From an uncultured Clostridia bacterium (GTDB lineage: Bacteria; Bacillota; Clostridia; Oscillospirales; Ruminococcaceae), in assembly GCA_944382875.1 (NCBI GenBank), contig CALWNQ010000045.1:13275-77274 (forward strand): 64,000 nt of DNA, in the 5' to 3' direction. The translations under genes were made by a program, and so were the position numbers. Of the stretch, positions 24,431-30,260 are shown in pieces. How positions within the stretch are numbered: the first letter of the stretch is position 1; every line of letters starts with the position of its first letter. The notes beneath the pieces are model-generated. The model was not told the origin of the DNA. It worked only from the letters and a program-made list of their open reading frames with translations, and made no database searches.

Positions 24431-24751
24431 TTATTGTTCAGTAAAAATTTGATATTCCTGCTTGAGTTTCAGAATGGGCAGAGAGACCATTTCCGATAAC
24501 TGTTTGGAAATTTTATCAATAGCAGTTTGGAAAGAAGTGTGTGCAAGTTCCAGTTTCTCCCAGTTGGTGTACACATTCTGTACAACCGGAAGTATCTCCT
24601 CCTCAAAGCGGTAGCAAGCAATATCGTCTATGATTTTGCCGGGGAATTCTGCTGCGATGCCTGCAGCATATTTTTTCCAGTCCGGTAAAGAAAACTGTCC
24701 CGAAGGAAAGCATTGCCGGATATTGGAAAATGTGTCGACGACAGAAAGCAT
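24431..24751 (-). CDS. Hypothetical protein (AT-richer orphan ORF inside the polyamine operon)
   Basis: 106 aa. GGAGG RBS 9 nt upstream of the ATG. Hand-counted GC is about 45% against about 52-55% in adjacent genes. I see no recognisable catalytic motif. Confidence 0.5.
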   Translation of the reverse strand: MLSVVDTFSNIRQCFPSGQFSLPDWKKYAAGIAAEFPGKIIDDIACYRFEEEILPVVQNVYTNWEKLELAHTSFQTAIDKISKQLSEMVSLPILKLKQEYQIFTEQ

Positions 24752-26481: not shown

Positions 26482-27933
26482 TTACGCTCCTTTCAGGACA
26501 TTCAAACGGGTGATGTCGGGATCTTCCGGCCCGGTCATCGAGCAGCCTTTTTCCTTGGCATAATGAATATAGTCCAAAATCTGCCGGGTAATCCGCTCGC
26601 CGGGGGTGAGGATCGGGATGCCGGGCGGGTAGCACATGACAAATTCGCTGCAAACCCGTCCCTCGGTTTGCTCAATGGGCAGCGATTCCTTGTCGGCGTA
26701 GAACGCCGCGTGGGGCGAAACAGCCACATCGGGGGCGATGTACTCCTGGCTCATCATCCCCATACTGTCCCGCTCATAACGGCGGCGGATCTCAGCCAGC
26801 GCGGCTACCAGACGCTCGACTTCCCGTTGGCGGTCGCCGATCGAGAGGTAGGCAAGGAAGTTTCCGAGGTCGCCGAATTCAATCTGGATGTCATATTCGT
26901 CCCGGAGAATGTCATACACTTCAATACCGGCTAGTCCCATATCGAGGGTGTGAACCGAGAGCTTGGTCCGGTCAAAATCATAGATGCTGTCGCCGTTTTT
27001 GAGTTCGTCCGCAAAGGCGTAGTAGCCGCCGATGGCGTTGATTTCCTCTCTTGCGTAGTCGGCAAGCTCCACCACCTTTGCAAAAGCTTCCTTGCCGCGG
27101 ATGGCAAGGTTCCGGCGGGAGATATCGAGACTGGAGAGCAAAAGGTAGGAGCCGCTCGTCGTCTGGGTGAGGTTGATAATCTGGCGGACATGTCCCTCGC
27201 TCATAGCGGGGCCAATGAGCAGGAAGGAGCTTTGAGTCAGGCTGCCGCCCGATTTGTGCATCGAAACGGCGGCCATGTCGGCGCCGGCCGCCATCGCCGA
27301 AACGGGAAGATTTTCTCCAAAATAAAAATGGGTGCCGTGCGCCTCGTCTGCAAGGCAGTACATCCCATTCTCGTGGGCAATTTTCACAATGGCACGCAGG
27401 TCGGAGCAGATGCCGTAATAGGTGGGGTTGTTGACCAGAACGGCTTTGGCGTCCGGGTTCTGGCGGATGGCCTCTTTCACGTCGGCAAGCTTCATCCCAA
27501 GCGGGATGCCGAGCCGTTCGTCGCAGTCGGGATTGACGTAAACCGGGATTGCGCCGCAGAGGACCAAAGCCCCCATGACGCTCCGGTGAACGTTGCGGGG
27601 GAGGATGATCTTTTCGCCGGCTTTGACGACCGACAAAACCATGCTCTGTACCGCCGAGGTGGTGCCGCCCACCATCAAAAAGGCATGGGCCGCGCCGAAT
27701 GCGTCGGCCGCCAGCTCTTCCGCTTCCCGGATGACCGAGATGGGGTGGCAGAGGTTGTCGAGCGGCTTCATCGAGTTGACGTCCATGCTGACGCACTTTT
27801 GGCCCAGCAGCTCGACAAGCTCCGGGTTGCCGCGGCCGCGTTTGTGGCCGGGGACGTCGAACGGGACGACCCGCATTTTCTGAAAGCGTTCCAGTGCCTC
27901 ATAAATCGGGGCGCGGTGCTGATTTTTTTCCAT
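26482..27933 (-). CDS. speA: Orn/Lys/Arg decarboxylase family enzyme, probable arginine decarboxylase
   Basis: 483 aa. PLP-lysine motif AAVSMHKSGGSLTQSS and fold-type-I major domain. The substrate is inferred only from the adjacent agmatinase. Confidence 0.75.
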   Translation of the reverse strand: MEKNQHRAPIYEALERFQKMRVVPFDVPGHKRGRGNPELVELLGQKCVSMDVNSMKPLDNLCHPISVIREAEELAADAFGAAHAFLMVGGTTSAVQSMVLSVVKAGEKIILPRNVHRSVMGALVLCGAIPVYVNPDCDERLGIPLGMKLADVKEAIRQNPDAKAVLVNNPTYYGICSDLRAIVKIAHENGMYCLADEAHGTHFYFGENLPVSAMAAGADMAAVSMHKSGGSLTQSSFLLIGPAMSEGHVRQIINLTQTTSGSYLLLSSLDISRRNLAIRGKEAFAKVVELADYAREEINAIGGYYAFADELKNGDSIYDFDRTKLSVHTLDMGLAGIEVYDILRDEYDIQIEFGDLGNFLAYLSIGDRQREVERLVAALAEIRRRYERDSMGMMSQEYIAPDVAVSPHAAFYADKESLPIEQTEGRVCSEFVMCYPPGIPILTPGERITRQILDYIHYAKEKGCSMTGPEDPDITRLNVLKGA

Positions 27934-28694
27934 TAGTAAATATTCCTCCCGCTGAAAATTTCGATCATCTCGCTGCGCAGGCTGTTCATAATCGAAAGCC
28001 GGGTGCTCGGCGGGAGCTCGTAGACGTCGGTTTTAAAGAGGTAGTTCTGGAGGTCGATCTCCTTAATCATCATATTGGTGTGGAAGAGGTTGGCGCTGTA
28101 TACGTTGATGTCCACCGCGTCGTAGCGCTGAAGCGTTTCATTGGCGATATAGTCCTGGATGGAGGTCATTTTGTGATCCATAAAAAGCTTTTTGCCGGTG
28201 ACGTCGCGGGTAAAGCCGCGGACGCGGTAATCAAGGGTGATGATGTCCGAATCAAAGGAGCCGATCAGGTAGTCGAGGGTGGAGAGCGGGGTGATCTCGC
28301 CGCAGGTTGCCACGTCGATGTCCACCCGGAAAGTGGCCAAACAGGTGTCGGGGTGATATTCGGGGTAAGTGTGGACTGTCACATGGCTCTTATCGAGGTG
28401 GGCGACCTGGGTTTCGCCGCCAACCGGGATCATCGAGCCTTCTGCGATCAGAATGGTGACCGAGGCTCCCTGCGGATCGTAGTCCTGGCGGGAAACATTC
28501 AAGACCTTTGCCCCGATCATGTTGGTGAGGGTGGTGAGGATGTTGGTCAGACGCTCCGAGTTATATTGTTCGTCGATATAGGCGATATAATCCTTCTGCT
28601 CCCGCGGTGTTTTGGCGTAGCAGACGTCATAGATATTAAAGCTCAGCGATTTTGTCAGGTTGTTGAACCCATATAAGGTCAGTTTCTGATCCAT
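27933..28694 (-). CDS. speD: S-adenosylmethionine decarboxylase proenzyme (long, E. coli-type)
   Basis: About 254 aa. KLTLYGFNNLTKSLSFNIYD N-terminus and self-cleavage/pyruvoyl site AHLDK-SHVTVHTYPE. Start set at ATG 28694 behind GGAGGGAG. The track extension to 28838 is Arg/Pro/Cys-rich leader sequence. Confidence 0.85.
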   Translation of the reverse strand: MDQKLTLYGFNNLTKSLSFNIYDVCYAKTPREQKDYIAYIDEQYNSERLTNILTTLTNMIGAKVLNVSRQDYDPQGASVTILIAEGSMIPVGGETQVAHLDKSHVTVHTYPEYHPDTCLATFRVDIDVATCGEITPLSTLDYLIGSFDSDIITLDYRVRGFTRDVTGKKLFMDHKMTSIQDYIANETLQRYDAVDINVYSANLFHTNMMIKEIDLQNYLFKTDVYELPPSTRLSIMNSLRSEMIEIFSGRNIY

Positions 28695-28935
28695 AAAGCT
28701 CCCTCCGGGACGATATTTTTGCAAAACAAAAAGCAGACGATTGCACGACAGCGAATCGCCTGCGTCAGTCAGACACCTGTATCCCGGCGGAAGAGCCCGT
28801 CCGCCGTTTTTGATCCTGTGGAATGATACAGATTGCATCTCAGAGCCTATATAGCAAATAATCTTACTTTTACTACTCTTATTGACCGTTTCACAAGTTG
28901 ATGTGCCGCATGCACACTGGTTATAAAGTAACCAA
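28695..28935 (-). promoter_or_regulatory. Long 5' leader of the polyamine operon
   Basis: About 235 nt separate the candidate promoter from speD. The leader is AT-rich and has no ORF. It contains the CGGCGG-N10-CCGCCG hairpin (28785-28806) and the terminator above. Confidence 0.45.
28722..28763 (-). terminator. Intrinsic terminator inside the speD leader (attenuator candidate)
   Basis: On the minus strand, GCAGGCGA-N15-TCGTCTGC (8 bp, one G-U) is followed by TTTTTGTTTTGC. It ends 28 nt before the speD start codon. Confidence 0.6.
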
Positions 28936-28966
28936 CTTATAAAATTTGAGTTTTTAACTCAATCAA
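28936..28966 (-). promoter_or_regulatory. Candidate sigma-A promoter of the polyamine operon, overlapped by a perfect palindrome
   Basis: On the minus strand: TTGATT (28966-28961), a 17-nt spacer, then TTTATA (or TATAAG with a 19-nt spacer). The palindrome TTGAGTT-TTT-AACTCAA (28946-28962) covers the -35/spacer region. Confidence 0.35.
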
Positions 28967-29138
28967 TGTCGGCAGTTGACCCGGCTGTCCGTCTGGCCTT
29001 GACCTGCAAAGGAAGCAGGTGGTCAAGAATATTTGCATGGAGAAGAAGCAACAGCATTCCATACAAACTTATGATAACAGAATGGGGGGGAATTGTCAAG
29101 ACATTTTTCGGCAAAATCCGGTTTGGTAAACCGAAAAG

Positions 29139-29174
29139 ACAAAATCGAAAAAAATTACAAAAATCGAAAAAAAA
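29139..29174 (+). repeat. A-rich direct repeat ACAAAATCGAAAAAAA x2
   Basis: ACAAAATCGAAAAAAA at 29139-29154 and ACAAAAATCGAAAAAAAA at 29157-29174, just upstream of the -10 box of the next operon. Confidence 0.6.
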
Positions 29175-29201
29175 TCCCTTTTTTTCTGTAGGGAAATGCC
29201 C

Positions 29202-29207
29202 TATAAT
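29202..29207 (+). promoter_or_regulatory. Candidate -10 box (TATAAT) for the URO-D-like/GH38 operon
   Basis: Perfect TATAAT 43 nt upstream of ATG 29250. There is no good -35; a T-tract occupies that position. Confidence 0.35.
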
Positions 29208-29249
29208 AAAGGTAAGTTGTGATTTGGAGAAATGGAAAGGAGTATCAAA

Positions 29250-30260
29250 ATGACATCACGAGAAAAGGTCTTGGAGATCTTTAACCGCAAAAGCACCAAC
29301 GGCGGTGCGATGTGGACGGGACATCCAAACGACGCTACGGTGCCGATCTACGCCGAAAAATGGGGGATCGAGCCCACACGGGAAGCGATCTTCCAGTTTT
29401 TAAACGACGACTGCCGGTGGTTTACGGCCGACAGCGGCTACCATCATCCGCAGGGGCTGCCCGCCATCGACCCGGCCTATGGGACTGAGCGGCACACCCT
29501 GAGTGCCGAGGGCTGCTTTGCCAATGCCGAAACGGTGGCCGACATCGAAAAATACCCCTGGCCAAACCCCGACTACTGCGATTTCACCGAAATCTACCGC
29601 CAGATTGAGCAGTTCCCGGATAAAATGGTCTTTACCGGGATGTGGAGCTGCTTCTTCCATCAGGTTGCCGATTTCTTCGGGATGGAAAACTATTTCATTA
29701 AGATGTATGAGTGCCCCGAGGTCGTGGAAGCGCTGACCGAGCGGATCGTCGACTACTATGTGGCGGCCAACGAGAAGTTCTTCTCCCAGCTTGGCGACCG
29801 GGCCGATGTCATGTTCTTCGGCAACGATTTCGGCACCCAGCTTGACCTTTTCATTTCCCCGGAGCTGTTCCGCAAGTTTGTCATGCCTTCCTTTAAGCGG
29901 CTGATCGCGGTGGGCAAAAAGTACAACAAAAAGATCATGCTCCATTCCTGCGGTTCCATCTACCGGATCATCCCCGACCTGATCGACGCCGGCGTGGATA
30001 TTCTCCATCCGATCCAGGCGCAGGCGGCGGGCATGAGCGCGCAGGATCTGAAACAGTATAAAAACGACCTCGCCTTTGTCGGCGGCATCGACGCCCAGAC
30101 CTTTTTTGTCAACGCGACTCCCCAGCAGATCAAGGACGAGGTACACCGCGTCCGGGACATCCTGGGCCCGAACATTGTCATTTCACCCAGCCACGAGGAA
30201 GTGCTGCCCAATGTACCGGCCGAGAACATCCTGGCCATGGCCGAAGCGGCGAGAGATTAA
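29250..30260 (+). CDS. Uroporphyrinogen decarboxylase (URO-D)/MT2 methyltransferase-like family protein, paralog 1
   Basis: About 336 aa. URO-D-fold pattern with an HxCG motif (MLHSCGSIYRIIPDLIDAGVDILHPIQ). Start at ATG 29250, 8 nt after AAAGGAG. Confidence 0.7.
   Translation: MTSREKVLEIFNRKSTNGGAMWTGHPNDATVPIYAEKWGIEPTREAIFQFLNDDCRWFTADSGYHHPQGLPAIDPAYGTERHTLSAEGCFANAETVADIEKYPWPNPDYCDFTEIYRQIEQFPDKMVFTGMWSCFFHQVADFFGMENYFIKMYECPEVVEALTERIVDYYVAANEKFFSQLGDRADVMFFGNDFGTQLDLFISPELFRKFVMPSFKRLIAVGKKYNKKIMLHSCGSIYRIIPDLIDAGVDILHPIQAQAAGMSAQDLKQYKNDLAFVGGIDAQTFFVNATPQQIKDEVHRVRDILGPNIVISPSHEEVLPNVPAENILAMAEAARD

Follow-up and report, generated by a model that had tools for sequence, protein, structure and literature searches.

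A conserved leader RNA that includes the ldcC motif and precedes polyamine genes in Bacillota is a candidate transcription-attenuation switch

Introduction

Polyamines are essential polycations. To our knowledge, only one class of riboswitch for polyamines has been validated, and it is rare. This spermidine riboswitch is a variant of SAM-I that acts as a transcription-termination OFF switch and has 13 representatives (Salvail et al. 2023, PMC10853860). Another RNA associated with polyamine genes is the ldcC motif, a bulged hairpin with a possible pseudoknot, the published model of which is 54 nucleotides (nt) long (PMC5737381). In Firmicutes, the motif sits in the 5′ untranslated regions (UTRs) of potA and of genes for arginine, ornithine, and S-adenosylmethionine (SAM) decarboxylases (PMC5737381). 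A role in polyamine homeostasis was suggested for it, and no ligand was reported (Weinberg et al. 2017, PMC5737381). In the literature that we searched, we found nothing on the ldcC motif later than the 2017 paper.

Here we describe a leader RNA upstream of speD in a 64,000-nt stretch of DNA from an uncultured Clostridia bacterium of the family Ruminococcaceae; this whole stretch is referred to below as the window. An earlier reading of the letters, made without database searches (the sequence-only reading), had singled out positions 28695 to 28966 as a structured leader with a promoter, an operator, and a terminator of its own. We found that the locus joins the orphan ldcC family as a new member and that this interval probably makes up the 3′ two-thirds of a leader RNA that acts in cis. 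What is new is a larger domain of 128 nt downstream of the motif, which is absent from Rfam and from the literature that we searched. Neither Rfam 15 nor that literature describes the larger domain, its platform, or its occurrence without the motif.

Results

The leader precedes a polyamine operon. The first gene of the operon, speD, encodes a pyruvoyl S-adenosylmethionine decarboxylase (Pfam AdoMet_dc). It is followed by a gene for an Orn/Lys/Arg decarboxylase, speE, speB, a 106-amino-acid open reading frame (ORF), and a saccharopine dehydrogenase-like gene that resembles carboxy(nor)spermidine dehydrogenase genes. Pfam matches in the operon were AdoMet_dc, OKR_DC_1, Spermine_synth, Arginase, and Sacchrp_dh; the 106-amino-acid ORF inside it (24431 to 24751, minus strand) had no Pfam match. 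We then looked at the first gene 3′ of the leader in 86 loci and found a decarboxylase in 36, speD in 32, carboxyspermidine dehydrogenase in 13, and potA in 3, with 2 loci unclassified, one of which is a truncated dehydrogenase. In locus L144, speB lies downstream of the leader. All of the downstream genes have a part in making or taking up spermidine-type polyamines.

The leader had been read as free of ORFs, which is correct in essence. Inside it, however, the minus strand has an ATG at 28838 that is in frame with speD and lengthens this gene to 301 amino acids (ORF 27933 to 28838); there is no stop codon between this ATG and the true start at 28694, and there is no ribosome binding site (RBS) at 28838. 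Gene callers could annotate this long form of speD, thereby masking the leader.

The sequence-only reading had named TTGATT-17-TTTATA as the only sigma-A-like promoter, giving a leader of about 235 nt. TTTATA fails the −10 rule, lacking both A2 and T6, and the site was not reported by our consensus scan. The scan instead gave TTGACA-17-TATCAT, with 11 of 12 consensus positions, as the sole promoter-like site between 28500 and 29400, and this promoter block is also conserved in an alignment of genus relatives. Because the promoter lies at this upstream position (Table 1), the leader should be about 370 nt long, with the ldcC motif inside it and with transcription predicted to start near 29064. 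Among 86 related loci, 65 had a rule-passing sigma-70-type promoter 5′ of the ldcC zone (58 of the 65 scoring at least 10/12), and just 1 had a rule-passing promoter at the downstream site. In the RNA, the hexamers of the downstream site form the 5′ strand of helix Pa and, together with a junction, the 5′ strand of helix Pb. An internal promoter with an operator at 28966 to 28938 was therefore rejected on the −10 rule, on its occurrence in 1 of 86 loci, and on the position of its bases inside a conserved RNA domain.

Table 1. Features of the speD leader and its surroundings in the window
Feature	Position	Strand	Description
Polyamine operon promoter	29071..29099	(−)	TTGACA 29099-29094, 17-nt spacer, TG-extended TATCAT 29076-29071
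5′ leader	29027..29064	(−)	Predicted hairpin GUAUGGA 29064-29058 / UCCAUGC 29041-29035, then junction CCAUGCAAAUAUUC 29040-29027 (MFE folds)
ldcC RNA motif	28969..29025	(−)	Rfam RF02440, "SpF59 sRNA" (cmscan)
Conserved 128-nt core domain	28840..28967	(−)	Seven helices; not in Rfam
Pa	28967-28961 / 28887-28881	(−)	AUUGAUU with GGUCAAU; outer helix
Putative promoter of the sequence-only reading	28938..28966	(−)	TTGATT 28966-28961, TTTATA 28943-28938
Palindrome TTGAGTT-AAA-AACTCAA	28946..28962	(−)	Perfect 7-3-7; hairpin H1 of the core
H1	28960-28956 / 28952-28948	(−)	The palindrome; enclosed by Pa
Pb	28941-28934 / 28899-28892	(−)	UAUAAGUU with AACUUGUG; inside Pa, encloses hp2 and hp3
hp2	28933-28929 / 28923-28919	(−)	
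hp3	28917-28912 / 28906-28901	(−)	
Switch strand CGGCACAUCAACUUGUGA	28891..28908	(−)	3′ strand of hp3 and 3′ strand of Pb
Pc	28879-28875 / 28846-28842	(−)	3′ hairpin with Pc2
Pc2	28874-28869 / 28858-28853	(−)	
Tail after core GAGAUGCAAUCUGUAUCAUUCCAC	28812..28839	(−)	Could pair with 5′ leader: UCUU:GAGA, GUUGC:GCAAU, UGGAAUG:CAUUCCA
Variable spacer hairpin	28777..28831	(−)	CUGUAUC 28831-28825 / GAUACAG 28783-28777, enclosing a GC hairpin; in folds
Intrinsic terminator	28723..28763	(−)	Stem-loop 28763-28733 (GCAGGCGA...TCGTCTGC) and U-run 28732-28723 (TTTTTGTTTT)
RBS GGAGGG and speD	27933..28706	(−)	RBS 28706-28701, ATG at 28694

Taken as a whole, the leader is more stably folded than its shuffled versions (−123.6 versus −103.2 ± 5.3 kcal/mol; z = −3.9). 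By eye, leaders of the Bacillus type (UUGGAAAG/CUUUCCAA) and of the Lachnospiraceae type (UUUGAAAGAC/GUCUUUUCAAA) have hairpins of other sequence that are equivalent to the one at the 5′ end here, and a GCAAAUAUU-like junction appears to be retained even in leaders without the ldcC motif. Judging from these sequences, the 5′ hairpins of the different clades may be equivalent.

We scanned the whole window against Rfam 15 and obtained one match above threshold, to the ldcC motif (RF02440). It scored 69.3 bits against a gathering score of 37.2 (E = 2e-12), covered model positions 1 to 54 of 54, and is the single copy in the genome. Both stems and the bulge align to the consensus. The family's highly conserved bulge is AAGGCCAUACGGACAGCCGGGUC, and the copy in the window has one substitution there, CCAGACGG for CCAUACGG. 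The candidate pseudoknot segments, CGGACAG and CUGCCG, are both present; they are invariant, hence there is no covariation to read, and the original paper also notes that the invariance of these segments puts the pseudoknot beyond a covariation test (PMC5737381). The gene setting is that of the family, with the motif upstream of speD and the Orn/Lys/Arg decarboxylase gene. In relatives, copies of the motif lie upstream of speD, a decarboxylase gene, CASDH, potA, or speB.

The earlier statement that no classic aptamer could be recognized thus holds within 28695 to 28966, and it is the RF02440 match adjoining that interval at 29025 to 28969 that qualifies it. The Infernal/Rfam scan that had been suggested divides in the same way: no family matched the 128-nt block at an E value of 10 or less, and RF02440 lies just outside the interval. 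The absence of a T-box 14-mer and of an S-box core was confirmed, with no match to the SAM-I/S-box model between 28600 and 29260 and none to the T-box covariance model at E ≤ 10, and no specifier or 14-mer. The other Rfam hits in 28600 to 29260 at E ≤ 10 were SdsR/RyeB, a snoRNA, and isrK. We discarded these as noise, since they fell far under their cutoffs and outside the core.

The leader varies least in the block downstream of the motif, here called the core. In an alignment of 10 genomes of the genus (the window and nine others), the core was near-invariant while its flanks and the synonymous sites of speD varied. It is also found in other families of the order, 5′ of speD, a decarboxylase gene, or potA. 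The core contains an invariant 22-mer, CUUGUGAAACGGUCAAUAAGAG, at 28897 to 28876, and a pattern scan found the 22-nt core CTTGTRAAACRRTCAATAHGAG in at least 120 species of Bacillota. Carriers of the 22-mer include Priestia, Paenibacillus, Neobacillus, Brevibacillus, Blautia, Lachnospiraceae, Oscillospiraceae, Acidaminococcus, and Acetobacterium.

We asked how the core and the ldcC motif co-occur. The core followed the motif in 55 of 55 loci examined, made up of 19 relatives selected with RF02440, 11 loci from a phylum sample of 301 genomes (three of them with diverged cores), 22 loci from a Bacilli sample of 301 genomes, and 3 loci from genomes reached through the core pattern, which are not an independent test. 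When loci were instead selected with the core pattern, the ldcC core was missing from 15 of 69, of which 14 had no RF02440 match at the gathering threshold. Since the core occurs without the motif and the converse was not seen, we regard the ldcC motif as optional and the 128-nt block as constant. Among 61 relatives, the core pattern found 22 genomes and the Rfam model 19; a reversed control pattern found none. Of the loci selected with the core pattern, about a fifth, those that have the core without the motif, escape the Rfam model.

A genome of the same family as the window (G023) has two copies of the 22-mer, on contigs C97 and C105, and one RF02440 match; a second leader, lacking the motif, probably precedes another of its polyamine genes. 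In a rumen Lachnospiraceae metagenome-assembled genome, two tandem Clostridiales-1 RNAs (RF01699; L077, 3206 to 3555) lie about 3 kb from a motif-less core.

RNAalifold and inspection gave a model of the core with seven helices (Table 1). Across 67 distinct sequences, 94.6% of the cells in paired columns were standard pairs, compared with 32 to 42% when the partners were slid by 1 to 3 columns. Covariation was sparse, the sequence hardly varying: double-sided changes occurred in 13 cells, a number reached by 0 of 500 shuffles, and involved 5 pairs. They lie in H1 (A-U to C-G), hp2 (G-C to A-U), and Pc. Several conserved core pairs are U-G, which pair only on the minus strand. The hp3 element stays a hairpin across 64 distinct sequences (mean z = −3.8). 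Of the conservation and covariation that the sequence-only reading had proposed looking for in related genomes, the conservation was strong, with a near-invariant core and at least 120 species that carry it, and the covariation sparse.

Of 69 loci with the motif, 65 have a linker hairpin between the ldcC motif and the core (mean z = −4.4 over 56 distinct sequences). It is missing in the window, where the motif and the core are joined at 28968 to 28969, and in the genus relatives L004, L016, and L017.

The perfect palindrome that had been noticed at 28962 to 28946 is present, and it had been taken for a repressor operator over the −35 element and spacer. It lies inside the RNA domain that is conserved across Bacillota, where it forms hairpin H1. 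In two loci, the GAG/CUC of the H1 stem is changed to GCG/CGC; in L019, L046, and L065, the loop is enlarged by insertions that range from 9 to about 75 nt; and in L028, L030, and L144, H1 is absent. Because a protein operator would not tolerate such A-U to C-G double changes and loop insertions, we interpret the palindrome as an RNA hairpin rather than an operator. Of the two layers of control that had been proposed, the attenuation leader stands, and the promoter/operator layer falls with the finding that its bases belong to this RNA domain. We also considered a leader peptide of 9 codons over the palindrome (TTG ATT GAG ... TAA) and rejected it, single-base indels in L002, L004, and L010 breaking the frame.

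The terminator just before speD, which the sequence-only reading had identified, was confirmed. RNAfold gave its stem 12 pairs and −16.8 kcal/mol, and the U-run ends 28 nt ahead of the ATG. In 82 of the 86 loci, a strong terminator occupies the equivalent position, downstream of the core and ahead of the first gene, and CA[AG]G is found within the first 12 nt of the terminator 5′ arm in 62 of these 82. We searched for the best upstream partner of the terminator 5′ arm and found that in 57 of 82 loci it is the 3′ strand of hp3 and Pb (...CAACUUGUGA); shuffled arms landed in the hp3/Pb zone in 49 of 820 cases (6%). hp3 differs among clades and the terminator arm changes along with it; the arm varies because hp3 does. 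Together, the conserved terminator and the competing pairing support the view of this RNA as an attenuation-type leader of a polyamine operon.

In many riboswitches, a helix strand is shared with an antiterminator that competes with the terminator, and this is the standard arrangement. The predicted expression platform here has the same logic, with a mutually exclusive terminator and antiterminator that would share a strand with the sensing domain. In the window, the antiterminator (28908 to 28891 with 28766 to 28750) is modest, at −11.4 kcal/mol. The terminator 5′ arm (about 28766 to 28750) pairs more strongly, at −17.0 kcal/mol, with the 3′ half of the ldcC motif (28988 to 28971), and this pairing is seen in the MFE structure of a transcript cut before the terminator 3′ arm. 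We treated it as a local alternative because only about five other loci share the ldcC segment as the best partner. At this locus, folding of the ldcC motif may be linked to the decision of the switch.

The tail after the core could pair with the 5′ leader. In the window, RNAduplex gave this pairing −24.4 kcal/mol, which is not significant (z = −1.1), and across 68 loci the mean z was also −1.1, with 26% of loci below −2 and a strong signal in Bacillus-type leaders. Tentatively, such a pairing would close the whole domain. Two candidate partners can be seen for the 5′ strand of the first hairpin, in Bacillus-type leaders such as L020 and L044 as well as in the window. One is local, UCCAUGC in the window (29058-29064 / 29035-29041) and CUUUCCA in Bacillus types; the second is a near-duplicate in the tail, CAUUCCA, AGCUUUCC (28816 to 28822 in the window). 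The two partners hint at a second alternative pairing.

The GC hairpin that had been reported (CGGCGG-N10-CCGCCG, 28806 to 28785, minus strand) is present inside the variable spacer hairpin, and its sequence, like that of the spacer, is not conserved even within the genus. On the plus strand, the GC hairpin at 28785 to 28806 is followed by TTTTTG (TTTTTGATCC) and scores as terminator-like. No plus-strand gene ends there, and the score is probably due to chance.

We looked for RNA sequencing runs that contain this genome and found none, the matches being to DNA-like or host single-cell runs. In runs with Priestia, most contigs looked genomic and two were informative. A 271-nt contig, from a run that we guessed to be RNA, matches Priestia sp. 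(L020, 3408 to 3678) with no differences and spans the folded leader only; it begins with the strand of the 5′ hairpin and stops at a complementary strand that lies 24 nt beyond the core. Its ends, GGGAAG... and ...GCUUUCC, are complementary, which fits a stable trimmed or terminated leader RNA. Another Priestia-like run contained a 2.8-kb contig ending about 27 nt downstream of the predicted transcription start. Gut metatranscriptomes held many short contigs from relatives over the region equivalent to 28840 to 28967, and one 199-nt gut contig over the core had a depth about 10 times that of its neighbors. The contigs carry no direction and DNA carry-over is possible, so the Priestia and metatranscriptome evidence is suggestive.

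Discussion

We consider it probable, from comparative sequence analysis, that this leader, some 370 nt in length, works in cis as an OFF switch of the riboswitch kind, controlling the speD polyamine operon by transcription attenuation in response to polyamines. Transcription would start near 29064, from the promoter at 29099 to 29071, and the RNA would fold into the 5′ hairpin, the ldcC pseudoknot domain (29025 to 28969), and the multi-helix core (28967 to 28840). The core strand 28908 to 28891 could pair either within Pb and hp3 or with the terminator 5′ arm (in the stem-loop 28763 to 28733). With the core folded, and presumably stabilized by an effector, the terminator would form and polymerase would halt 28 nt before speD (OFF); with the core unstabilized, the antiterminator would form and the operon would be read through. 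Spermidine or another polyamine, or else a close product of the pathway, would most probably be the effector, bound directly. What the sequences show is the membership of the family, the conservation, the pattern of base pairs, the terminator with its competing pairing, and the association with polyamine genes; the start site, the direction of the switch, the direct binding of a ligand, and the identity of that ligand are what we infer from these features. A polyamine feedback OFF switch is the most economical reading because the genes controlled make or take up polyamines of the spermidine type. The sequence-only reading had offered a polyamine, SAM or decarboxylated SAM (dcSAM), or an arginine-related compound as ligand; a polyamine-related signal is the part that fits both the genes and the role suggested for the ldcC motif (PMC5737381).

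The leader can be compared with three kinds of known systems. With the ldcC/SpF59 family (RF02440), the locus shares a full-length, high-scoring copy of the motif, in the 5′ UTR of a SAM decarboxylase and Orn/Lys/Arg decarboxylase operon of a Firmicute. In contrast to the published 54-nt model, the motif is here one among the domains of a longer leader (about 370 nt), in which a separate downstream domain of 128 nt is the most constant part and a terminator/antiterminator platform is defined. With the SAM-I-variant spermidine riboswitch, the leader shares the kinds of genes (ldcC, speE, speB), and the OFF termination and polyamine effector of that riboswitch are what we propose here. The folds of the two RNAs are unrelated, however, and the variant is rare (13 representatives) whereas this RNA occurs in at least 120 species. 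Ligand binding has been proven for the variant; the polyamine effector of the present RNA is putative. Finally, lysine L-box, cobalamin, and T-box leaders are alike in being long, in having several conserved junctions, and in setting a strand-sharing antiterminator against a terminator before the first gene, but there is no similarity of sequence or model. Like these, the present leader has a conserved, apparently structured domain in the 5′ UTR, as a riboswitch sensing domain would be.

A serious rival, even if an unlikely one, is protein-mediated attenuation, in which the core, the ldcC domain, or both would bind an RNA-binding protein, which may itself sense polyamines and which chooses between terminator and antiterminator. 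The conservation, the terminator, and the competing pairing fit this equally well, the long invariant unpaired stretches could be a protein footprint, and the ldcC motif has been without a published ligand since 2017 (PMC5737381). Against a protein stand the occurrence of the same RNA before different genes in distant Bacillota (Bacilli, Clostridia, and Negativicutes) and a size, multi-junction fold, and extreme conservation that resemble those of large riboswitch aptamers; nor did we notice, on unsystematic inspection, a common neighboring regulator gene.

Less probable still is an ON switch, in which the effector would stabilize the antiterminator or destabilize the core and so induce the operon. 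Sequence alone cannot set the direction, and ligand-dependent folding could act either way in the window, where the terminator arm also pairs with the ldcC 3′ half at −17.0 kcal/mol. A competing strand placed inside conserved core helices, as in 57 of 82 loci, is nevertheless the usual OFF arrangement, repression by an end product is in keeping with genes for biosynthesis and uptake, and the spermidine riboswitch, the only one validated, is OFF (PMC10853860).

We would rate about as low the idea that the terminated leader acts in trans as a small RNA, beside or instead of its control in cis. Rfam files the family as an sRNA (SpF59 sRNA), and short, abundant, leader-only contigs were seen in RNA runs. 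This RNA is, however, always directly 5′ of polyamine genes, on the same strand and with its terminator abutting the RBS.

Very improbable is a 235-nt leader that starts from TTGATT-17-TTTATA (28966 to 28938) with a repressor on the palindrome, since, although the hexamers and the perfect 7-3-7 palindrome exist in an AT-rich region, the −10 element lacks A2 and T6 and the scan was silent there, a rule-passing promoter is found at that site in 1 of 86 loci and upstream in 65, the promoter bases have their pairing partners in remote strands of the core, the palindrome shows covariation of the RNA type, takes long loop insertions, and is missing in some loci, and contigs over the homologous leader in a Priestia-like run begin upstream of the ldcC motif.

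Returning to the cis-acting polyamine OFF switch, we suggest tentatively, and with somewhat more doubt than confidence, that a domain of about 250 nt, comprising the 5′ hairpin, the optional ldcC pseudoknot, and the core, is the aptamer of a second class of polyamine riboswitch, Bacillota-wide and unlike the SAM-I variant, with the 54-nt motif as a dispensable side branch. If true, this would explain why the ldcC motif alone gave no ligand. The construct to probe would then be 29064 to 28810 together with the platform, rather than the 54-mer, with the switch strand defining the mutations to be made, and the question of the ldcC ligand would become directly testable.
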